NCBI RefSeq assembly: GCF_039915195.1
Contig: NZ_JBDSNT010000105.1
Coordinates: 5,252 to 69,251 of the forward strand
Length of the DNA stretch: 64,000 nt
Origin: Gaiella sp.
Lineage (GTDB): Bacteria > Actinomycetota > Thermoleophilia > Gaiellales > Gaiellaceae
Direction: 5' to 3'
In this document: in pieces, positions 3,789 through 25,489 of the stretch
Numbering within the stretch: position 1 is the stretch's first letter
Layout of the letters: each line of letters begins with the position of its first letter
Notes under the pieces: generated by a model
Database searches by the model: none
Seen by the model: only the letters and a program-made list of their open reading frames with translations
Told to the model about the DNA's origin: nothing
Program-made: the position numbers and the translations under genes

Positions 3789-3875
3789 GGCTTCAGTTCT
3801 TTCGGCAGATCTACCCTGGCTCCTGTCACCCGAATGGGGCCGGGACGGTCCCGATCCCCTCAGTAGACTGAGACC

Positions 3876-6082
<2,207 letters not shown>

Positions 6083-8443: not shown

Positions 8444-9268
8444 TCAGCGAGCGACGAGTCCCGCGGCGTGGTCTGGAACGTACGTCATCGTCGATCGATC
8501 AGGGCGGACATAGCCCGTGTCGACCTGTCGCACCGGCAACTCACGCATCGGCGCGTCAATCGGTTCATACGGAACCTTCGAGAGCAGGTGTGCGATGCAG
8601 TTGAGCCGCGCGTTCCTCTTCACATCCGCCTCGACGACCCACCACGGCGAGATGTCCGTGTCGGTGTGGACGAACATCTCGTCCTTCGCGCGTGAGAAGT
8701 CGACGAAGCGCTTCCGTGACTCGATATCGACGTCGCTCAGCTTCCAGCGGCGGGTCGGATCTGTCATGCGGGCCTGGAAGCGCCGCTCCTGTTCCTCGTC
8801 GCTGACCGAGAACCAATACTTGACCAAGGTGATCCCGTCCTCGATCAGCATGTTCTCGAACGGGGGGCACTGGCGCAGGAACCGGTGATGCTCCTCGGGC
8901 GAACAGAAGCCCATGACCTTCTCGACGCCCGCGCGGTTGTACCAGCTTCGGTCGAAGAGGACGATCTCGCCGGCCGCAGGTAGGTGCGCGATGTACCGCT
9001 GGAAGTACCACTGCGCTCGCTCGCGCTCGGATGGCGCCTGCAGCGCGGCGATCCGGCAGAAGCGGGGATTGAGGCGCTCCTGGATCCGCTTGATGGCGCC
9101 GCCCTTCCCGGCCGCGTCGCGGCCCTCGAAGATCACAGCGACCCTCGTACCCGAGGCACGGATCCAGTCGAGCATGAGAGCGAGCTCGATCTGGAGCCGT
9201 TGCAGCTCCTGCTCGTACTGCGCCCTCGTGATCCTGGGTGCTGCTTTCTCGCGATTGGGACGCGCCAT
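8444..9268 (-). CDS. ppk2: Polyphosphate kinase 2
   Basis: FEGRDAAGKGG Walker A and FDRSWYNRAGVE motifs. Confidence 0.95.
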   Translation of the reverse strand: MARPNREKAAPRITRAQYEQELQRLQIELALMLDWIRASGTRVAVIFEGRDAAGKGGAIKRIQERLNPRFCRIAALQAPSERERAQWYFQRYIAHLPAAGEIVLFDRSWYNRAGVEKVMGFCSPEEHHRFLRQCPPFENMLIEDGITLVKYWFSVSDEEQERRFQARMTDPTRRWKLSDVDIESRKRFVDFSRAKDEMFVHTDTDISPWWVVEADVKRNARLNCIAHLLSKVPYEPIDAPMRELPVRQVDTGYVRPDRSTMTYVPDHAAGLVAR

Positions 9269-16108: not shown

Positions 16109-17305
16109 ATGGTCCGCCTGTCGGTTGTCCTTGGTGTGCTCGCGGCCGTGATGCTGCTCGCGGGAACCGCAACGGGTGATCCAGGTGCCGAGAAGTCGGG
16201 AGTTGACGCCCGTCTCGGAGAGGCTCGCGAGAAGGCAGAGCAGGCGGCCAGGTCGGCGAAGCTTCTCACGACCGAGGTGAGTAGGCTCAGTCAGGCTGCA
16301 CGCTCGGCGGAGGCGGCCCTCGCGGGTGAGCAGGCTCGGGTTACGGCGCTCGAGGCGTCTCTCGCAGCCGAGCAGGCTCGCCTCACGCAACTGGGACGCG
16401 AAGTAGATGCACAGAACGCGCGACTCGCAGTCCTCGGCCAGCAATACCGGGCGGCACTTCGTGTTCTCGAGAAGCATGTCCGCGCGATCTATCTGTCGGA
16501 CTCCCCCGATCTCATCTCGTTCGCCGTCGGAGCCACGTCGTTCGGCGAGCTCATCAACAACCTTGATCTTCTCGATCGAATCGGGAAGCAGGACCAGCGG
16601 ATCGCCGGAGCGTTCGACGCGGCCCGCATCGAGCTCGCACGGGCACGGGCATCGACGCTTCGCATGGAGCGCGAGGTCGCACGATCCGTATCGGTCATAG
16701 CAGCGCGAACCGCGGCTCAGCGCGAAGCACGCGATCTCGTTGCCTCGAGGCGGAGCGCGCTCGTGGCCGCCGAGAGCGACAAGGCGCAGGCGCTCGAGGG
16801 CGCACGTGAGGATCGCGCCACGTTCATCGCAGAGGCGGAGGCGCTCGCGGCCCAGAGTGCTGCGCTCGCGGCGAAGATCCAGGCCTTGCAGGCCGCCATT
16901 CCAGCGGCGACGTCACCCTCGCCCACGGCTCCTTCGTCAGGGGCAACGCTTGCCTGGCCCGTGTCGGGGCCTGTGACGAGCGGCTTCGGCCCTCGGTGGG
17001 GCAGGATGCACGAGGGCATCGACATCGCCGTCGGCACCGGGACACCGGTTGGCGCGGCCGCGGCAGGCACGGTGATCCACGCGGGGTGGCTCGGCGGCTA
17101 CGGGAATCTCGTGGTGATCGATCACGGAGGCGGACTTTCGACCGCGTACGCGCACAACTCGAGCCTCGTCGTCGGTGAGGGAACCGCCGTGAGCGCCGGG
17201 ACCGTGGTCGCCCTCTCGGGGAACACCGGCAACTCGTCCGGGCCCCACGTGCACTTCGAGGTCCGGATGAATGGCGCGGCGGTGGATCCGCTTCGGTATC
17301 TGTAG
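16109..17305 (+). CDS. M23 family peptidoglycan endopeptidase with coiled coil (EnvC/CwlO-like)
   Basis: Signal peptide, long coiled coil, then HEGID and HVHFE Zn motifs. Confidence 0.92.
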   Translation: MVRLSVVLGVLAAVMLLAGTATGDPGAEKSGVDARLGEAREKAEQAARSAKLLTTEVSRLSQAARSAEAALAGEQARVTALEASLAAEQARLTQLGREVDAQNARLAVLGQQYRAALRVLEKHVRAIYLSDSPDLISFAVGATSFGELINNLDLLDRIGKQDQRIAGAFDAARIELARARASTLRMEREVARSVSVIAARTAAQREARDLVASRRSALVAAESDKAQALEGAREDRATFIAEAEALAAQSAALAAKIQALQAAIPAATSPSPTAPSSGATLAWPVSGPVTSGFGPRWGRMHEGIDIAVGTGTPVGAAAAGTVIHAGWLGGYGNLVVIDHGGGLSTAYAHNSSLVVGEGTAVSAGTVVALSGNTGNSSGPHVHFEVRMNGAAVDPLRYL

Positions 17306-17329
17306 GCCGGACGCGCCTTGGTGTAGTTC

Positions 17330-17890
17330 CTAGGCGGCGTCGGTGGCCGCTGCCGGGAGCGCCTCTGTCGGGATGATGCGGAGATCGGGCAGCGCGCGCC
17401 ACTGCTCCTCGAGACCGAGGCCGTACCCCGCGAACAGCTCATCAGGGACTGTGAACCCGACGTACCGGAGGCCGATGTTCTCCACGAGCCTTCGGTACGG
17501 GCGATCGAGCAAGGTGACGGACGTGATGCTCGCCGGATCGCGCTCGGCGAGCGTCCGCGTGAGGAACGCGAGCGTGAGCCCCGTGTCGACGACATCCTCG
17601 ACGAGCAGGACATGCCTGCCGCCGATCGGAACGTCGAGATCCTTGAGCAGCCGGACGCCGCCGCGGCGGCCGTCAGAGTAGGCAGCCATCTCGATGACGT
17701 CGATCGTGTGCAGGATCGGCAGAGCCCGGGAGAGATCGGCGAGGAAGATCGTGCTCGACTTCAGGGGAGCCACGAGGAGTGGCTCCCGGCCCTCGAAGTC
17801 GGCAGCGATCTCCGCGCCGAGCTCTGCCACACGGGCAGCGATCTCGGCAGCCGAGAGGTAGACCTCGCCGATGAGGCGGTCGTGTCCTAT
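17330..17890 (-). CDS. hpt: Hypoxanthine phosphoribosyltransferase (start codon uncertain, possibly ATA 17890)
   Basis: PRPP-binding motif VLLVEDVVDTGLTL, plus LLDRP and FAGYGL. No ATG/GTG/TTG precedes the first conserved helix. Confidence 0.85.
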   Translation of the reverse strand: MGHDRLIGEVYLSAAEIAARVAELGAEIAADFEGREPLLVAPLKSSTIFLADLSRALPILHTIDVIEMAAYSDGRRGGVRLLKDLDVPIGGRHVLLVEDVVDTGLTLAFLTRTLAERDPASITSVTLLDRPYRRLVENIGLRYVGFTVPDELFAGYGLGLEEQWRALPDLRIIPTEALPAAATDAA

Positions 17891-18255
17891 GAGGCGAGCT
17901 TCAGCCGGTAGCGCTGGGCCAGGCGCTCGAGGTCGCGCCGGTAGAAGAGCTTGACGTTGACGTGCGGGTACTGCTCGCGCAGCTCCCGGAGCTTGCGATT
18001 CTTGCGCGTCACGAGGGACTGCTTCATCACGGTCACCTCGATGTACAGGTTCTCTTCCGGGAGGAAGAAGTCGGGCGTGAATGCGCGAGTAGTCCGCCCC
18101 TGGTCGTCTCGTTCGAGAACGAACGAGGTGGGCTCGTAGTCCCAGGGGATGCCATACCAGTCCAGGATCCTGGCGCACTCGAGCTCGATCCGGTTGGCAA
18201 ACCGCGGGGGCTCTGTTCCACGGTACGCCTGGAACCGGTGGGATTCCGACCGCAC
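17887..18255 (-). CDS. PD-(D/E)XK-like putative nuclease, 122 aa
   Basis: E...WDYEP...FTPDFFLP...YIEVT pattern. TACCGT-N6-GTG start. Confidence 0.75.
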   Translation of the reverse strand: MRSESHRFQAYRGTEPPRFANRIELECARILDWYGIPWDYEPTSFVLERDDQGRTTRAFTPDFFLPEENLYIEVTVMKQSLVTRKNRKLRELREQYPHVNVKLFYRRDLERLAQRYRLKLAS

Positions 18256-18261
18256 GAGTAG

Positions 18262-18285
18262 ACGGTACTCGCGCTCTCGGACGGC
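18262..18285 (-). promoter_or_regulatory. GCCGTCCG-N10-TACCGT promoter motif (nuclease-like gene)
   Basis: Read on the minus strand. -10 hexamer is 6 nt before GTG 18255. Confidence 0.55.
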
Positions 18286-18324
18286 CCCCTCGACCCGGAC
18301 GCCTCGAGGTCATAGACTTCGGCG

Positions 18325-19134
18325 ATGTCGAACAGCGCTGCACCGGGCCTCCGGATCGCTCACCTCTCTGACCTCCACTGTGGCGAGCAGTACTTCGAGC
18401 CGACCCTGCTCGAGCGCGCGATCAGCGAGATCAACGACCTGAATCCCGACATCGTCATCTGCTCGGGTGACCTCACGACCCTCGGTTTCAAGCACGAGTA
18501 CCAGCTCGCGAGGCAGTACGTCGACAAGATCGAGTGTGAATCCCTCGTCGTGATACCCGGAAACCATGACTCCCGGAACGTCGGGTACGTGCACTTCGAG
18601 GAGATGTTCGGCGAGCGGAATTCGGTGCTCCGCAAGGGCGGAGTCACCGTTGTCGCGGTCGATTCGACCGAGCCCGACCTCGACCACGGCCAGATCGGGC
18701 GCGGCCGCTACTCGTGGATCGAGAGGGAGTTCGGTGCCGAGCCGGCCGACCTGAGGATCTTCGTGCTCCACCATCACCTGCTTCCCGTCCCGGGAACCGG
18801 TCGGGAGCGGAACGTCGTGTATGACGCAGGAGACGTGATCGAGTGCCTCCTGCGATCCGGAGTGCAGCTCGTCCTCTCGGGGCACAAGCACGTTCCATAC
18901 GCGTGGCGCCTCGAGAATCTCTTCGTCGTCAACACCGGCACCGTTTCGTCTCTACGCTTGCGGGGTAATACACGACCCTGTTACAACGTGATCGAGGTCA
19001 ACGGCAGCCACGTCGATATCTGGCGCCGACATCCGTTCCACGGCCAGGAGCGCATCATTCAATTCTCGACCGACACGTTCGAGTACGAGAAGTACACCGG
19101 CCGGATCGAGTCCGAGGTGAAGTCCCGCGTATGA
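18325..19134 (+). CDS. Metallophosphoesterase, CpdA/Icc-like
   Basis: HLSDLH, SGDLT, PGNHD, LHHH and SGHKH calcineurin-like motifs. Confidence 0.93.
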   Translation: MSNSAAPGLRIAHLSDLHCGEQYFEPTLLERAISEINDLNPDIVICSGDLTTLGFKHEYQLARQYVDKIECESLVVIPGNHDSRNVGYVHFEEMFGERNSVLRKGGVTVVAVDSTEPDLDHGQIGRGRYSWIEREFGAEPADLRIFVLHHHLLPVPGTGRERNVVYDAGDVIECLLRSGVQLVLSGHKHVPYAWRLENLFVVNTGTVSSLRLRGNTRPCYNVIEVNGSHVDIWRRHPFHGQERIIQFSTDTFEYEKYTGRIESEVKSRV

Positions 19135-20408
19135 GGGCAGTGGCGATGATCGACGGGGAGCACTATGCCCCTGTGGTCAGGGACGCGCTCGTCGAGTTGC
19201 CCTACGACATCGTCGGCTGTGTGCTCGTCGGGGGGACGGAGAAGCTTCGGGGTGGGGAGGACTACGGTGTGCCGCTCCTGGCGTCGCTCGAAGAGGCGGT
19301 CGCCGAGCTCTCACCGGACGTCGTGCTCGATCTCTCGGACGAGCCCGTTCTCGGCCCTCCCGCGCGATTCCGCCTCGCCGCCCGGGCGCTCGCCCTCGGG
19401 ATTCCCTACGAGGGAGCGGACTTCCGCTTCGACCCGCCGCGCTTCGAGGCCATTGCGCGACCCTCGATCGCGATCATCGGAACCGGAAAGCGCGTCGGCA
19501 AGACGGCCGTGACCGGTCACGTGGCAGGCGAGCTGGCGCGGGAACGGAATGTCGTCGTCGTCGCAATGGGCCGTGGAGGACCTCCCGAACCCGAGCTCGT
19601 CGAGGTCCGGCCGACCGTCGCGGATCTGCTTCGCATCTCTCGCTCCGGGATGCACGCCGCTTCGGACCACCTCGAGACCGCCGCACTGACCGGCGTGCTG
19701 ACAATCGGCTGCCGTCGCTGCGGCGGCGGTCTCGCCGGCGCCGTCGGCACGTCCAATGTCCTCGCGGGTGTCCGCCTCGCCGAGGAGCTCGATCCCGACC
19801 TCATCGTGCTCGACGGGAGCGGAGCAGCTCTGCCTCCGATCGCGGCTGATCGCCGCATCCTGGTTGTCGGGGCGCACCAGGATCTCGCCGTTACGACCGG
19901 CTACCTGAACCCGTATCGCGCCCTGCTCGCAGATCTCATCATCGTGACGATGGCGGAGAGTGGCGTCGCGCATCGCGAGCTTGCGACCGCTATGACGGCC
20001 CTGGCGCGCCCGGGCGTGCCGGTCGTTCGTGTCGTCCTGCGGCCCCGCCCGCTCGAGGACGTCCGTGGACGGCGGGTCGCGTACTTCGGGACAGCGCCGG
20101 GAACGCAACACGCCCGGATCGCCGAACACCTCGAACGAACGTACGGGGGAGAGGTCGTTCACGTCTCCGGGAGCCTCTCGGACCGGGCGGCGCTCCGGTC
20201 GGAGCTCGTCGGCCTCGACTGCGACGTCATCGTTGTCGAGATCAAGGCAGCCGCGATCGATGTCGTTGCCGAGGAGGCCGCGCGGATGGATGTCCCCGTC
20301 GTGCTCGCGGCGAACGACGTCCTGCCCCTTGCGGGCGAGCCTGAACTCGACGCCGAGCTCGGTCGGCTCGCGAACGAGGCGACCGCGTCTGCGACGGTGG
20401 GCGTGTGA
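19131..20408 (+). CDS. cpgS: Cyclic 2,3-diphosphoglycerate synthetase
   Basis: IDGEHYAPV N-terminus, GTGKRVGKT, MGRGGP, ASDHLE and GCRRCGGGLAG, all typical of the cDPGS family. ATGA overlap with the upstream gene. Confidence 0.88.
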   Translation: MRAVAMIDGEHYAPVVRDALVELPYDIVGCVLVGGTEKLRGGEDYGVPLLASLEEAVAELSPDVVLDLSDEPVLGPPARFRLAARALALGIPYEGADFRFDPPRFEAIARPSIAIIGTGKRVGKTAVTGHVAGELARERNVVVVAMGRGGPPEPELVEVRPTVADLLRISRSGMHAASDHLETAALTGVLTIGCRRCGGGLAGAVGTSNVLAGVRLAEELDPDLIVLDGSGAALPPIAADRRILVVGAHQDLAVTTGYLNPYRALLADLIIVTMAESGVAHRELATAMTALARPGVPVVRVVLRPRPLEDVRGRRVAYFGTAPGTQHARIAEHLERTYGGEVVHVSGSLSDRAALRSELVGLDCDVIVVEIKAAAIDVVAEEAARMDVPVVLAANDVLPLAGEPELDAELGRLANEATASATVGV

Positions 20409-21319
20409 GCGAACGCCGCTATCTCGCTCCGCTACCGCTCGGAGGTGACGAGGGGCCGCCGTGGTCAAAGGGACTGATGGCGCGCGCGCTGGCCGCCACG
20501 GGCCTGACGCCCACCCGTGCGTACGAGCTCGCCCGTCGCGCCGATGCGGACATGATCGACCGTGGCTCGCTCGAGCTCGACCTCGACCGGCTGGCGGAGG
20601 TCGCTGCCGAGACGCTCGGCGAGCAGGAGGCGGTGCGCACGATGCGCCGACTGCGGCGTCTCCAGGCACTCCAGCACCTCGAGCTCCCCGTCGTGCTGCT
20701 CGTCGGCGGCGCGACCGGCACGGGCAAGTCGACGCTTGCCACCGAGGTGGCGCACCGGCTCGGCATTACCCGGGTGACGTCGACGGACTTCATCCGCCAG
20801 ACAATGCGTGCGTTCTTCTCTCGCGAGTTCATGCCGTCGGTGCACTACTCGAGCTTCGAGGCGGAGCTCGCGCTGAGCCGGGCCGACGAGGATCTTGCCG
20901 GTGATGCAACGCTGCGTGGCTTCCTCGACCAGACGCGGAATGTGCTCGTTGGCGTGGAGGCGGCGATCGACCGCTCGCTCACGGAAGGATGGTCGATGGT
21001 GCTCGAGGGCGTCCATCTCGTGCCCGGGATGATCGCCGTCGATCGAACCGACGCGATCGTCGTTCAGTGCGTGATCTCGATCAGCGACGAGCAGGCGCAC
21101 CGGAGTCACTTCTGGGTCCGGGACGCAGCCACGGATGGCCTGCGCCCACTGGAGAAGTACCTAGACGGGATGACCGAGATCCGGATGATCCAGGACATTC
21201 TCGTCGAGCGTGCACGGCGCTGTGATGTCCCGGTGATCGAGAACGTGAACCTCGACCACGCGATCGGCCAGGTACTCGACCTCGTCCTCACGGGGGCCGA
21301 GCGCCTCGCCCGGGTGTGA
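20405..21319 (+). CDS. pgk2: 2-phosphoglycerate kinase
   Basis: PWSKGLMAR ATP-cone-like N-terminus, GGATGTGKST P-loop, STDFIRQ and EGVHLVP. GTGA overlap with cpgS. Confidence 0.88.
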   Translation: MSERRYLAPLPLGGDEGPPWSKGLMARALAATGLTPTRAYELARRADADMIDRGSLELDLDRLAEVAAETLGEQEAVRTMRRLRRLQALQHLELPVVLLVGGATGTGKSTLATEVAHRLGITRVTSTDFIRQTMRAFFSREFMPSVHYSSFEAELALSRADEDLAGDATLRGFLDQTRNVLVGVEAAIDRSLTEGWSMVLEGVHLVPGMIAVDRTDAIVVQCVISISDEQAHRSHFWVRDAATDGLRPLEKYLDGMTEIRMIQDILVERARRCDVPVIENVNLDHAIGQVLDLVLTGAERLARV

Positions 21320-21371
21320 GCGATCACCGGCGGTCATCTGAAACCCGTCGCCTCGTAGCTAGACTCCAGCC

Positions 21372-21671
21372 ATGGTCACCGAAGCAGACGTCATCGAAGC
21401 GCTCCACGGCGTCGAGGATCCGGAGCTCGGAATGGACATCGTCGAGATCGGCCTTTTCTACGAGGCAGAGATCGAGGGGCCGAACATCAAGGTCATCCAC
21501 TCTCTCACCTCGATGGGTTGTCCTGCAGGCCAGATGATCCAGGAGGGCATCCACGACGCGGTCGCGGCGCTTCCCGGCGTCGAGAAGGTCGAAGTGGAGC
21601 TGACGTTCGATCCGCCGTGGACTCCCGACCGCATGTCGGAAGACGCGAAGTTCATCCTAGGCTTCGGCTAG
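21372..21671 (+). CDS. Metal-sulfur cluster assembly factor (DUF59/SufT-like)
   Basis: VEDPELGMDIVEIGL, TSMGCP and FDPPWTPDRMS. Confidence 0.92.
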   Translation: MVTEADVIEALHGVEDPELGMDIVEIGLFYEAEIEGPNIKVIHSLTSMGCPAGQMIQEGIHDAVAALPGVEKVEVELTFDPPWTPDRMSEDAKFILGFG

Positions 21672-21824
21672 CGCCGAGCTCGTTCCGCGCTCAGGGCTTC
21701 GGCGGTATCGGCGTCGAGGCCTTCTGACCCGGCGCCGCCCACGCGTCGCTCACCGGTACGTCGCTACACGCCGAGACCCTCCCTGCGAACCAGGATCCGT
21801 AGGGTCGACACGGAACCTAGGGCC

Positions 21825-21857
21825 ATGTGCGCCTGTTGCCTGAGACGGTTGCCGTGA
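21825..21857 (+). other. Candidate 10-aa Cys-rich uORF MCACCLRRLP
   Basis: ATG 21825 to TGA 21855-21857. The stop overlaps the queG GTG (GTGA). GAACCT-N6 lies upstream of the ATG. Confidence 0.4.
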
Positions 21858-22861
21858 CGGCGGCGGAGCTCGCCCAGCTTGCGATCGAGGTTGGCCTCGA
21901 TGCAGTCGGCGCGTCCCCTGCAGCGGCGTACACGGGGACGGAGGAGCACATCCGCGAGCGCCGTGCGACGGGCCTCTTCGCCGACATGAAGTTCACCATG
22001 GCCCACCCCGAGATCTCCTGCCACCCGGAGCTCCATCTCGACGGGGAGGCGAAAACCGTGATCTCGGCAGCGCTCTGCTACTGGGTCGATGGCCCCGACG
22101 CGGGCGCCGGTGAAGGGCGCCTCCCGCGGTATGCGTGGCGTGACCACTACGCGCTCCTACGCGAACGCCTCGATGCTCTCGGTCGAAGCCTCGGTGGCAG
22201 GTACCGCGTCTTCGTCGACGCCAATCAACACGTCGATCGCGAGGGGGCGCGACGAGCGGGGCTCGGCTTCTACGGCAAGAACACGATGTTGATCACGCGT
22301 GAGCACGGATCGTGGGTTGTCCTCGGCACGCTGATCACCGACGTCGAGGTGGAGGCGACGCCACCCCTCGACCTCGATTGCGGGCGCTGCACTCTCTGTA
22401 TCGATGCGTGCCCGACGGGAGCGCTCGACGATCCCGGGGTGCTCGATGCGAATCGCTGCCTCTCGTACTGGACGCAGGCACCGGCGCCGGTTCCCGAGGA
22501 CTACCGCGCCGAGCTCGGTGCCTCGGTGTACGGCTGTGACATCTGTCAGGACGTATGCCCCTGGAATCGGGGGGTCGAGAAGCGGCGCGCAGGTGTCGAG
22601 CTTGCCGACGATGCAATGTCGAACGTCTCGCTCATCGACTGGCTCACGCGCTCAGGGAGCGATCTCGTCGGCGAGCTCGACCGCCTCTACGTGCCTCGAA
22701 ATGACGCGCGCTGGCTGAAGCGCAACGCGCTCCACGCCCTCGGCAACACGGGAGGTCGCGGCGCTCTCCAGCACCTGGAGCCGTTCCGATCGAGCGACGA
22801 CTCGATCCTTGCCGACGCGGCGAGTTGGGCCGAACAGCAGATCGTCGAGCGCTCATCGTGA
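21854..22861 (+). CDS. queG: Epoxyqueuosine reductase QueG
   Basis: YAWRDHY, GKNTMLI, CGRCTLCIDACPTGAL and CLSY...YGCDICQDVCPWN. Alternative start GTG 21827. Confidence 0.93.
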   Translation: MTAAELAQLAIEVGLDAVGASPAAAYTGTEEHIRERRATGLFADMKFTMAHPEISCHPELHLDGEAKTVISAALCYWVDGPDAGAGEGRLPRYAWRDHYALLRERLDALGRSLGGRYRVFVDANQHVDREGARRAGLGFYGKNTMLITREHGSWVVLGTLITDVEVEATPPLDLDCGRCTLCIDACPTGALDDPGVLDANRCLSYWTQAPAPVPEDYRAELGASVYGCDICQDVCPWNRGVEKRRAGVELADDAMSNVSLIDWLTRSGSDLVGELDRLYVPRNDARWLKRNALHALGNTGGRGALQHLEPFRSSDDSILADAASWAEQQIVERSS

Positions 22862-23493
22862 TGCGAACCCGGCTCGATGTCCTCGTTCACGAGCTGCGGA
22901 GCCCGGTGGCCGCGCTCCTTGCGATCTCGGAGGTCTATGCCGACGCGGACTACTCGACGAGGCTCCGTCTCGTGGAGCTGGCCTGCACGGCGGGTGCGAG
23001 CCTCGAGCGCCTGCTCACCGACGTCACCGAAGCGACGCTCAGGCTGACGCGGCTCGATCTCGGTCGAATCGCTTTGGATGCGTGTGAAACTGCGACTCTC
23101 GGAGGTTCGTCGATCGTCGTGGCACCGGAGACCGACACCGCGCTCGCGGTTATCGGTGACGCGACCCGCCTGCGTCAGGCCCTCGACAACCTGATCGGGA
23201 ACGCGATCGGGCACTCACCGGCAGGGGCGACAGTCACCGTGGCGGCGACGCGTAGGGGAGGCTCATGTCTGGTCTCGGTCATCGACGAGGGCGAGGGAGT
23301 CTTGCCCGAAGACCTCGAGCGGATCTTCGAGCCGGGAGTGCGCGCCACGAGCGCCCGATCGGGGTCAGGTCTCGGCCTCGCTGTGGTACGAGAGATCGCC
23401 CGAGAGCACGGGGGAGAGGTCGAGGTGGAGTCGCGTCCCGACTGGGGCGCGACATTCAGGCTCGTGCTGCCGGCCGCTTCCGACGCGTCGTGA
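22861..23493 (+). CDS. Minimal histidine kinase without sensor domain
   Basis: HELRSP at residue 10, then N-box DNLIGNA, G1 DEGEG, F-box IFEP and G2 GSGLGL. Confidence 0.88.
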   Translation: MRTRLDVLVHELRSPVAALLAISEVYADADYSTRLRLVELACTAGASLERLLTDVTEATLRLTRLDLGRIALDACETATLGGSSIVVAPETDTALAVIGDATRLRQALDNLIGNAIGHSPAGATVTVAATRRGGSCLVSVIDEGEGVLPEDLERIFEPGVRATSARSGSGLGLAVVREIAREHGGEVEVESRPDWGATFRLVLPAASDAS

Positions 23494-25489
23494 CGCCCAG
23501 CTCCGATTGCAGTTCCTTGGCGCGCGCAGCGACGCTCGCCCGCATGTCGCTCGGCTCGAGCACGATGGTTTCTCCTGCGTCCGCGAGTACCTCGGACAGC
23601 AGCCATTCGTCCGTCTTGAACTGGATCTCCGAGAGGGCCGCCTTGTCGGTCAGAGCTCGAGCGCCGCGCTCGAGCTTCCAGCGCGCTACGACGGGTGAGT
23701 GCCAGAGTCGTGCGATCCGCTGCTCGTGGAGGTAGCGGGGGTCGAAGCCGTCGCGCGGTTCGAACGACTCGGTCGTCATCGTCGCCGACCGCATCCTGTC
23801 GAGTCGATAGGTGCGCGGTCCGTCGGCCGTGCGATCCCACGTGTGAACGCGCCAGACGGGTAGCTCGCGCTCGAACGAGTACGGCTCCACCGAACGTGTT
23901 GTCGGATTCTCGTCTCCCTCCTTGAGGTACTCGATCTCGACGACGAGACGCTTCTCCACCGCGTCCGAGAGGGTACGGACGAGCTTCTCTTCGACGTCCT
24001 CGGCATCTCCGGACGGGGCTCGAGGGAGGTCGAACTGCCCGAACGTCTCCTCAAGCTTCTTCCGCACGCGATCGAGCGGCGTGTGGGCCTCCGCAGCGAT
24101 TGTCGGCCCGACGTAGTCAATGGCGAGACGGATAGCGCGGGCCTCGAGAGGCGTCAGCTTCGGGGGACGCCGAAAGACGTCGCCGTAGAGCTCCTTGTCG
24201 ACCCGGACGATCCCTTCGTCTTCGTCGACCTCGGCGTAGACCGTATAGCAGCCGCCGCCGAAGTTGACGAGGTTGAGGAGCGACAGCGTCTCCTGGAGCT
24301 CCTCGCGGGGAATCGAGAAGCGTGAAGCAAGATCGTTGGCATCGAGTCGTGCGTCGCGTCCCTCACCGCACGCGGAGAGGACGTGAGCGAGCAGCGCCTG
24401 AAGGACTCCGAACCGCTCGGGCGCGATCGGGCCAACGGGCCGGTCGCCCCGGTCCGAGTGAGCCTCGATGCGACGCTCCCTGGCAAGGACAGGGACATCG
24501 CCGTCGTGGCCGTCTCGGAGACGGGCGAGTCCGTCGGAGACCGCATCGCGCAACGCCTTGGGAGCGAGAGGGATGGCCCGGCCGTTCTGCCGGAGCACCC
24601 AGCCGGCGAGCGGCTCGACGTTCGCAAAGTCGGTTTCGAACACCCCGTCCACGAGGGACCCGGCGTCCGACAGGGTCCGATGCACCCACCAGGCCGTGTC
24701 GCCCTGGACAGCGATCCGGGCCTTGCCGGCGGTCTCGCCGATCTGCCACGGTCGCGGCACGCGGTGCGCCTCGACATCGAACTCGGGCGGCAACCGGAAG
24801 TCGCGCTCGCGGCGCGTGGCGAAACGAATGTCGCTGCGGATTCGTGAGACGCGGAACGTCCGCACAGCAGCGCGGTCGAGGTCCTGGCCAACGACGTACC
24901 AGATGCCCTCGTCGAGGCGCAGCGCATAGGGATTGAGGGCCCGCTCACCGACCTTGTCCCGCTGCGGCGACCAGTACGAGAACTTGATCGTGCGTTGCTT
25001 CGAGATTGCCGACTCGAGCTTGGAGAGGCGACCGGCCAACTCGGGAGAGTAGTCAGGAGCGCTCACGCGCACGCGCTCGGCGGTGTCTGTTCGTGCCTCG
25101 TGGAAGCCGGGACGGCCGAGAGCGAGGTTCTGCAGCGCGAGCCGCAGCGGCTCTGCGTAGGCGAACTTCCCGTCGAGGTAGAACAGCGCTGTCTGGAGCG
25201 CCGCGAGCTCGTCGTCCTTCAGGTCGAGGCGATCGAGGAAGTAGTTCTCCGACCGCAGAGTGTAGAGCTCCTCACCCGTGAACTCGTCACGGTGCGAGTG
25301 AAGGGGGACGCCGAGCGCGGTGAGTTCCGCGCGGTCCGAGTAGAACCGACGCGCGAAGGCCTCGTCGGACATCTCCGAGTAGCCCTCGACGTTGCCCTTG
25401 ACATCGCGCGCGGTCAGCGGACGGCGCTCGGCCATCAGAAAGGCGACGAGCGAGAGTTGACGGATGAGCTTGTCGGTGTCGTGCGACAT
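23456..25489 (-). CDS. pafBC: Fused PafB-PafC-type double HTH-WYL-WCX transcriptional regulator
   Basis: Two modules. Module 1: RRFYSDRAEL...WYVVG...RTFRVSRI. Module 2: LTPLEA...EP...RTYRLDRM. 677 aa. Confidence 0.88.
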   Translation of the reverse strand: MSHDTDKLIRQLSLVAFLMAERRPLTARDVKGNVEGYSEMSDEAFARRFYSDRAELTALGVPLHSHRDEFTGEELYTLRSENYFLDRLDLKDDELAALQTALFYLDGKFAYAEPLRLALQNLALGRPGFHEARTDTAERVRVSAPDYSPELAGRLSKLESAISKQRTIKFSYWSPQRDKVGERALNPYALRLDEGIWYVVGQDLDRAAVRTFRVSRIRSDIRFATRRERDFRLPPEFDVEAHRVPRPWQIGETAGKARIAVQGDTAWWVHRTLSDAGSLVDGVFETDFANVEPLAGWVLRQNGRAIPLAPKALRDAVSDGLARLRDGHDGDVPVLARERRIEAHSDRGDRPVGPIAPERFGVLQALLAHVLSACGEGRDARLDANDLASRFSIPREELQETLSLLNLVNFGGGCYTVYAEVDEDEGIVRVDKELYGDVFRRPPKLTPLEARAIRLAIDYVGPTIAAEAHTPLDRVRKKLEETFGQFDLPRAPSGDAEDVEEKLVRTLSDAVEKRLVVEIEYLKEGDENPTTRSVEPYSFERELPVWRVHTWDRTADGPRTYRLDRMRSATMTTESFEPRDGFDPRYLHEQRIARLWHSPVVARWKLERGARALTDKAALSEIQFKTDEWLLSEVLADAGETIVLEPSDMRASVAARAKELQSELGVTTRRKRPAARA

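Follow-up and report, generated by a model that had tools for sequence, protein, structure and literature searches.

Cyclic 2,3-diphosphoglycerate (cDPG) is stated by De Rose et al. (2023, PMC10690619) to be exclusive to hyperthermophilic methanogens, and genes for its synthetase (cDPGS) have been noted in thermophilic ammonia-oxidising archaea. A role as a phosphate or energy store has also been proposed for cDPG in the literature, and the compound can now be prepared with enzymes (PMC12136491). In Methanothermus fervidus and Methanothermobacter, biosynthesis uses a 2-phosphoglycerate kinase (2PGK) and cDPGS; as published, cDPGS catalysis requires no helper (PMC10690619), and the M. fervidus synthetase is reversible according to PMC1224877. 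For the opposite step, the same source credits Sastry et al. (1992) with an activity of Methanothermobacter thermautotrophicus that hydrolyses cDPG to 2,3-diphosphoglycerate (2,3-DPG), is membrane-bound, and is inhibited by K+ and inorganic phosphate (Pi). The locus compared here with these systems is an operon of three genes, encoding a metallophosphoesterase (MPE), a cDPGS and a 2PGK family protein, in a 64-kb window of DNA (the whole stretch that was analysed) from a soil actinobacterium of the Gaiellaceae (Gaiellales, Thermoleophilia), in agreement with the actinobacterial host of the original prediction. An earlier annotation of the window (the original prediction) had proposed a coupled module for cDPG synthesis and turnover and had noted that no gene is known to be firmly assigned to cDPG hydrolysis. 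On the latter point the open literature searched agrees: it gives the activity and names no gene for a cDPG hydrolase. The operon consists of:

18325-19134, + strand: gene 1, the MPE, 269 amino acids (aa), ATG start, first gene of the operon
19131-20408, + strand: gene 2, cpgS, the cDPGS homologue, 425 aa, ATG start
20405-21319, + strand: gene 3, pgk2, the 2PGK family protein, 304 aa, GTG start

With a probability of about one half, the operon would be a module for both synthesis and turnover of cDPG, with gene 1 as its dedicated hydrolase, most likely converting cDPG to 2,3-DPG. For the module as originally predicted, the enzyme families of genes 2 and 3 and the linkage of the MPE to them held up, while gene 1 is, from its context, a candidate for hydrolysing cDPG or 2,3-DPG. 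As in the cDPG biosynthesis of M. fervidus and Methanothermobacter (8ORK/8ORU, PMC10690619), the same two enzyme families are present and align over their full lengths; unlike that system, they occur here in a mesophilic actinobacterium from soil and share an overlapping operon with a third gene, and cDPG production is predicted from the genes. The results that are new here are phylum-wide two-by-two counts of co-occurrence, a tree of the MPE, a check of apparent gene fusions, and a negative result for adjacency in Methanobacteriales.

Identity of the three proteins

Judged by its sequence, gene 2 encodes a genuine member of the cDPG synthetase family. In particular, residues 3-395 align with the M. 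fervidus structures 8ORU/8ORK (phmmer E=1.3e-88) at 40% identity, and a second solved cDPGS, 9SXB, is matched with E=2.4e-86. According to De Rose et al. (2023, PMC10690619), 2,3-DPG, Mg2+ and ADP are held by E45 and K46 (both from the partner subunit), K145, R146, K149, T150 (Walker A), D208, T353, E404 and K406; all ten of these ligand and catalytic residues are invariant across the archaeal enzymes, the window's cDPGS and two distant actinobacterial relatives, and the Walker A loop GTGKRxGKT, which carries K145, R146, K149 and T150 (M. fervidus numbering), is invariant in both cDPGS alignments. Because every 2,3-DPG-binding residue of the solved synthetase is kept, the same substrate and product are argued for. 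The Pfam family PF27272 (CpgS_N) is the precomputed annotation of the window's cDPGS (P0001) and of all 120 listed relatives; a profile scan with a local copy of Pfam matched no family to the window's protein, so that PF27272 rests on the precomputed annotation. The membership of gene 2 in the cDPGS family, as originally assigned, is thereby confirmed by its matches to solved structures and by its ligand residues.

These comparisons make it highly improbable that the operon makes no cDPG in this mesophile and that its synthetase and kinase have drifted to another substrate. Such a drift would be compatible with 40% identity to the characterised enzyme and with the fact that bacterial cDPG is unreported in the literature searched, but it would have to leave all ten ligand and catalytic residues invariant, retain full-length matches to two independent solved cDPGS structures (E<=1e-86) and preserve a partnership with 2PGK that mirrors the known pathway.

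Gene 3 aligns with nearly the whole NCBIfam model PRK04220 (2-phosphoglycerate kinase; E=1.5e-78, model positions 16-290 of 306), with 264.3 bits where the cut-off is 343; its score for PRK12337, whose cut-off is 603, is 273.7 bits, and P-loop NTPase models match its residues 95-136. On this whole-model alignment it is a full-length member of the 2PGK family, as had been proposed, that fails the equivalog cut-off; since its score is under that cut-off, its probable substrate is taken from its partner, cDPGS. Public records already carry machine-given names for the synthetase and the kinase, and name the MPE generically.

Gene 1 encodes an intact metallophosphoesterase, in line with its first description. 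Its match to Pfam Metallophos (PF00149) has E=5e-20 and 73.1 bits, compared to a cut-off of 21.5, and all metal motifs are present; D16xH18, G48D49, G79NHD82, H149-H151 and G186HKH189 are invariant across 37 copies linked to the operon. A basic set is also kept (R84, R126, R160-E-R162, K188, R211 and R213), with R211 found in 97% of linked copies and R84, R126, R160-E-R162 and R213 invariant. The AlphaFold (AF2) model is confident, with a predicted local distance difference test score (pLDDT) of 84.6 and a predicted template-modelling score (pTM) of 0.88; it is weaker at loop 208-215, which carries R211 and R213, and has middling confidence at the PxTGRER loop, as expected for mobile lids. The closest solved folds are the class III phosphodiesterase-type enzymes GpdQ (Enterobacter aerogenes) and Rv0805 (Mycobacterium tuberculosis), which share the fold and the two-metal motifs at about 20% identity (sequence E about 1e-9, template-modelling (TM) score 0.65-0.8), and purple acid phosphatases are also among the fold matches. 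Among solved structures and named families, nothing closer to the MPE than Rv0805 and GpdQ was found. Unlike Rv0805, gene 1 has the family-specific loops PxTGRER, RxRG and GxxGR, which are not seen in the Rv0805 alignment.

The label 'CpdA-like' that the original prediction gave to gene 1 had to be dropped, as the protein reaches 42.7 bits against an equivalog cut-off of 225 for CpdA/Icc (NCBIfam NF008359). The public names of its relatives, which are 'CpdA', 'Icc' or 'metallophosphoesterase', are generic transfers. The best NCBIfam match, an anti-phage phosphoesterase, was also rejected, since its alignment is partial and its score far under the cut-off. The MPE subfamily is small: a search of 1.84 billion representatives gave 257 clusters at E<=1e-30. 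The 37 linked MPEs group as a single clade (100/94 support) in a maximum-likelihood tree; this clade is sister to unlinked actinobacterial paralogues, with the Methanobacteriales homologues outside. Unlinked paralogues are present in relatives at loci L024 and L025.

Two side observations concern the architecture of the MPE family. Tandem gene pairs occur in nine genomes (G449, G469, G494, G498, G505, G506, G515, G532 and G556), and fused double-domain proteins of 490-560 aa are represented by P0372, P0374, P0375 and about 25 others, one cluster of which has five members from several sources.

Conservation and setting of the triad

The original prediction had suggested counting how often such a phosphoesterase neighbours cpgS and pgk2, and the count came out strongly positive in Actinomycetota. 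Among 41 relatives, the three genes occur together and adjacent in 22 of 24 congeneric genomes and all 8 genomes of two further families, and the triad is intact in every relative that has cDPGS; in two other families of the order (f2 and f3), cDPGS and 2PGK are each found in 0/4 genomes, and the MPE family in 0/4 and 2/4, respectively, the latter with weaker matches. A scan of one genome per species located at least 551 loci encoding a relative. The best 80 were examined, all from Gaiellales, and these have the MPE directly upstream in 80/80 and the kinase directly downstream in 79/80, the exception lying at a contig edge, with the same order and strand throughout. In the window, the sequence reads as an ATGA overlap (19131-19134) between genes 1 and 2 and a GTGA overlap (20405-20408) between genes 2 and 3. 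With start codons of the relatives picked heuristically, the Gaiellales MPE-cDPGS junction overlaps in 70/78 loci (by exactly 4 nt in 57) and the cDPGS-2PGK junction in 72/77 (by exactly 4 nt in 60).

Beyond the order, a sample of 401 genomes of the phylum contains cDPGS in 229 and the MPE subfamily in 227: both occur in 225, cDPGS only in 4, MPE only in 2, and neither in 170. The tallies for cDPGS and MPE per family agree almost one to one, and the tiny P value of this co-occurrence overstates the case because the relatives are not independent. Moreover, about 38 other families contributed 40 loci, and the order MPE-cpgS-pgk2 is found in 33 of them; the remaining seven comprise five with cpgS-pgk2 and no adjacent MPE (L114, L119, L126, L135 and L139), one with MPE-cpgS and no pgk2, and one at a contig edge. 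Displacement of the MPE by another phosphohydrolase was considered for the MPE-less loci and rejected, as the upstream gene encodes ThrB, an SppA-like peptidase or a glycosidase resembling glycogen-debranching enzyme. At two of these loci (L135 and L139, from families f20 and f56), cpgS-pgk2 directly follows and overlaps the gene of a 737-774 aa protein that looks, by eye, like glycogen-debranching enzyme. Further, three loci of family f4 (L017, L018 and L019) have 700-1000 nt between genes, an MPE with a low-complexity C-terminal tail and a synthetase frame that is open far upstream; a Pfam scan for extra genes in these spacers gave no match, and the spacers look like protein extensions.

Apparent single-frame fusions of MPE and cDPGS were found in about 15 proteins of the representative search (for example P0364, P0371 and P0425; also P0277), several of them as patchy matches. 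They were set aside as functional evidence: all seven that were looked up, a set that does not include P0277, are single-member clusters from ENA contigs, and the apparent fusions are probably frameshift or assembly (indel) artefacts at the 4-nt overlap.

In 76/77 Gaiellales loci and 31/32 phylum-level loci, the MPE is better conserved than either of its partners. Mean identities to the window's MPE, cDPGS and 2PGK are 80, 63 and 67% in Gaiellales and 55, 44 and 41% at the phylum-level loci. Gene 1 is thus both first and most conserved, and a catabolic role would explain this no better than an indispensable one in biosynthesis or regulation; the protein might act as a phosphatase on both enzymes and so regulate them, remove a side product (e.g. 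a 2-pyrophospho intermediate), or take part in biosynthesis of a related end product other than cDPG, and the position of the 2PGK homologue below its equivalog cut-off leaves its substrate less than certain. We regard such a role, tied to the pathway in some other way, as unlikely: the kept 2,3-DPG-binding residues of the synthetase point to the same substrate and product, and the cDPGS mechanism as published proceeds without a helper.

In most loci outside Gaiellaceae, the triad has homoserine kinase on one side and, on the other, a transaldolase-like gene and then rho, and hence lies inside a lysA-hom-thrC-thrB ... rho ... prfA block, which we take to be a classic conserved actinobacterial arrangement. 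The window differs: upstream of the triad it has CcmF, an M23 peptidase and a phosphoribosyltransferase, and downstream DUF59 and a QueG-like gene. The triad has therefore changed its chromosomal place in Gaiellaceae without breaking up, an argument that the three genes are kept together by selection. Its GC content (0.63-0.70) is like that of the flanks, so recent horizontal transfer was rejected. The triad is old and vertically inherited in Actinomycetota, and is not an archaeal import; given this wide occurrence, the flank-like GC content and the conserved thrB-rho setting, calling the operon 'archaeal-type', as was first done, is misleading. Vertical inheritance also weakens a simple count of adjacency.

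The same setting bears on the suggestion that gene 1 is an unrelated housekeeping phosphodiesterase, acting for example on cyclic nucleotides, whose adjacency is inherited synteny. Neighbours within so conserved a housekeeping block can persist by inertia, unlinked paralogues exist, the methanogens keep these genes apart (see below), and the public names 'CpdA', 'Icc' and 'metallophosphoesterase' would agree with it. This is nevertheless quite improbable: the CpdA equivalog test failed, the MPE subfamily occurs in only 2 of the 172 sampled phylum genomes that have no cDPGS, the triad relocated as a unit in Gaiellaceae, and 4-nt coding overlaps join the genes in most Gaiellales loci.

Candidate role of the metallophosphoesterase

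In the proposed module, the 2PGK would produce 2,3-DPG, the cDPGS would use ATP to close its two phosphates into a cyclic pyrophosphate, and the two-metal centre of the MPE would reopen the P-O-P bond to give 2,3-DPG, with the arginine-rich loops (R160-E-R162, R211/R213 and R126) gripping the highly anionic substrate. Ring opening would then let the cDPG pool be capped or drawn down as a reserve of phosphate, carbon or energy. Enzymes of the MPE fold such as LpxH, ApaH and ADPRibase-Mn cleave pyrophosphate bonds. The cyclic pyrophosphate is the most likely target of the MPE because this step has a reported activity but no gene, and the reaction proposed for gene 1 is the same as that of the M. 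thermautotrophicus activity. The logic, by analogy only, also resembles that of the E. coli ppk-ppx operon, which pairs polyphosphate kinase with exopolyphosphatase and so holds synthase and hydrolase of one phosphate-rich reserve together; unlike here, the reserve in that case is a polymer rather than a small cyclic pyrophosphate, and the protein families are unrelated.

Several points weigh against this proposal. The main objection is that a hydrolase co-translated one to one with the synthetic enzymes wastes ATP unless it is regulated. The futile cycle may be avoided by phosphate inhibition, as in the methanogen activity. Inhibition of this kind is chemically natural for two-metal phosphoesterases; it would resolve the ATP-wasting cycle, and the unit would then become a phosphate buffer. 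Moreover, several families keep cDPGS and 2PGK with no adjacent MPE, and adjacency elsewhere is largely inherited from common ancestors, so that the counts are of non-independent events. The fold gives no indication of the substrate, because the best solved matches share about 20% identity and are diesterases of promiscuous activity. Unlike the M. thermautotrophicus hydrolase, which was described as membrane-bound, the gene 1 protein looks soluble: no transmembrane segment was found in it, the maximum Kyte-Doolittle mean over 19 residues being 0.99. In addition, no paper reporting cDPG or its genes in bacteria was found in the searchable literature.

The archaeal loci belong to the same side of the balance. 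The linkage of an MPE to cpgS did not extend to methanogens with known cDPG, as no 2PGK or MPE lies within 7 kb of cpgS at three Methanobacteriales loci (Methanothermobacter, Methanobacterium and a third methanogen); the archaeal MPE homologues also fall outside the linked clade of the tree. Across 151 genomes of the methanogen phylum, cDPGS occurs in 140 and the MPE family in 138 (both in 132, cDPGS only in 8, MPE only in 6, neither in 5), a loose and weak co-occurrence that incompleteness or shared descent could explain. Because the association is weak, the archaeal evidence neither supports nor excludes the proposed function.

The surroundings of the archaeal genes were recorded as well. 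The three methanogen cpgS genes (L147-L149) are flanked by hisD, a UPF0058 gene, a RimB-like gene and thermosome genes; the small UPF0058 gene always precedes cpgS and the RimB-like gene follows it in 2/3, making these two possible archaeal partners of cpgS. The Methanothermobacter genome G441 encodes two gene 1 homologues (42-45% identity): one adjoins a regulator with a PhoU domain and the other sits between NAC and a NYN RNase. At L150 (4992-5780 and 6501-7436) of this genome, one of the two homologues (4992-5780) lies close to a gene that joins a winged helix to PhoU domains, and it shares H90 and G96 with the operon-linked bacterial copies. The PhoU neighbour hints at phosphate-regulated use of the archaeal homologue.

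The reversibility of the M. fervidus synthetase means that a ring-opening hydrolase is not strictly needed. Gene 1 could then be a 2,3-DPG phosphatase, a monoesterase yielding 2- or 3-phosphoglycerate and phosphate, with the ring reopened by the reverse synthetase reaction to yield ATP. The linkage, conservation and clade evidence would be the same for this activity as for a hydrolase, and many MPEs are monoesterases, as are the purple acid phosphatases that the fold search matched. A phosphatase beside the kinase would, however, drain the pathway at its intermediate and so create a futile cycle worse than that of ring opening, and Rv0805 and GpdQ, the solved proteins most like it, act mainly on diesters; we consider it somewhat unlikely. 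The gene identities, the layout of the operon, and its conservation and co-occurrence in the phylum are shown by the data; from context, we infer that cDPG would be made in this organism and that gene 1 may be the enzyme that opens its ring.

Putative start signals, neighbouring genes and possible biological meaning

The start of the operon is marked by one of two promoter-like elements:

18313-18318, + strand: TAGACT, a -10-like hexamer, 6 nt before the ATG of gene 1
21360-21374, + strand: second TAGACT-N6-ATG, at the start of a DUF59/FeS_assembly_P gene (21372-21671)

Two TAGACT sites thus frame the operon, with gene 1 starting at the first (18313) and the next gene at the second (21360). 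The arrangement TAGACT-N6-RTG occurs three times in the window (3864-3878, 18313-18327 and 21360-21374) compared to an expected 0.11, and 0/100 shuffles reached three. The recurrent TAGACT looks like a -10 element positioned for leaderless transcripts, and the copy at 18313 is probably the promoter of one. Leaderless transcripts are common in Actinobacteria, and the spacing of TAGACT fits them. A scan of 17300-22000 gave neither a sigma-70 consensus promoter nor an intrinsic terminator. Both coordinates and sequence confirm the original description of three open reading frames that follow a TAGACT-N6-ATG start and overlap at ATGA and GTGA. In public gene calls, the cDPGS begins three codons later (P0001, 422 aa), in which case a small gap would replace the ATGA overlap. 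On the minus strand, an open reading frame that encodes a phosphoribosyltransferase domain (residues 165-289) shares 19 nt with the start of gene 1 when taken at its greatest length (17330-18343); translation probably begins further in, so that the divergent promoter region between the two genes would be very short.

The surrounding DNA contains other genes of interest. A PPK2-type polyphosphate kinase with a DAAGKGG motif lies at 8444-9268 (- strand), 9 kb from the operon and on the other strand; the link to ppk2 that had been proposed is not borne out at this distance and orientation, and ppk2 was rejected as an operon partner. Two kilobases past the operon, 23456-25489 (- strand) encodes a 677 aa fused PafBC-like regulator with two WYL domains, a PafC-type HTH and a WCX domain. 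In 28 of 45 diverse loci (e.g. L144, in an open reading frame about 2250 nt past the cpgS start), a gene on the same strand follows pgk2 and precedes rho; by eye it resembles transaldolase/fructose-6-phosphate aldolase, and it may share a transcript with the triad in those lineages. This transaldolase-like gene is absent from the window.

Overall, the genes of the cDPG operon are intact and under clear purifying selection in over half of the Actinomycetota sample (57% of 401 species), mostly in uncultured organisms of soil and water. Tentatively, cDPG or a very close cyclic pyrophosphate could be widely made by mesophilic Actinomycetota of soil and water, and so be no speciality of hot-spring methanogens, and could serve these bacteria as a dynamic buffer of phosphate and energy, with the MPE as its phosphate-gated release enzyme. 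If the pathway is active, there is now a clonable candidate gene for an enzyme activity that was described in 1992 with no gene attached; the candidate also bears on biotechnological production of cDPG, because a hydrolase in the production host would limit yield. Further, an active pathway would turn a supposedly thermophile-specific 'extremolyte' into a widespread bacterial metabolite, and would shift the role of cDPG from heat protection toward storage of phosphate, carbon or energy, or toward stress protection.

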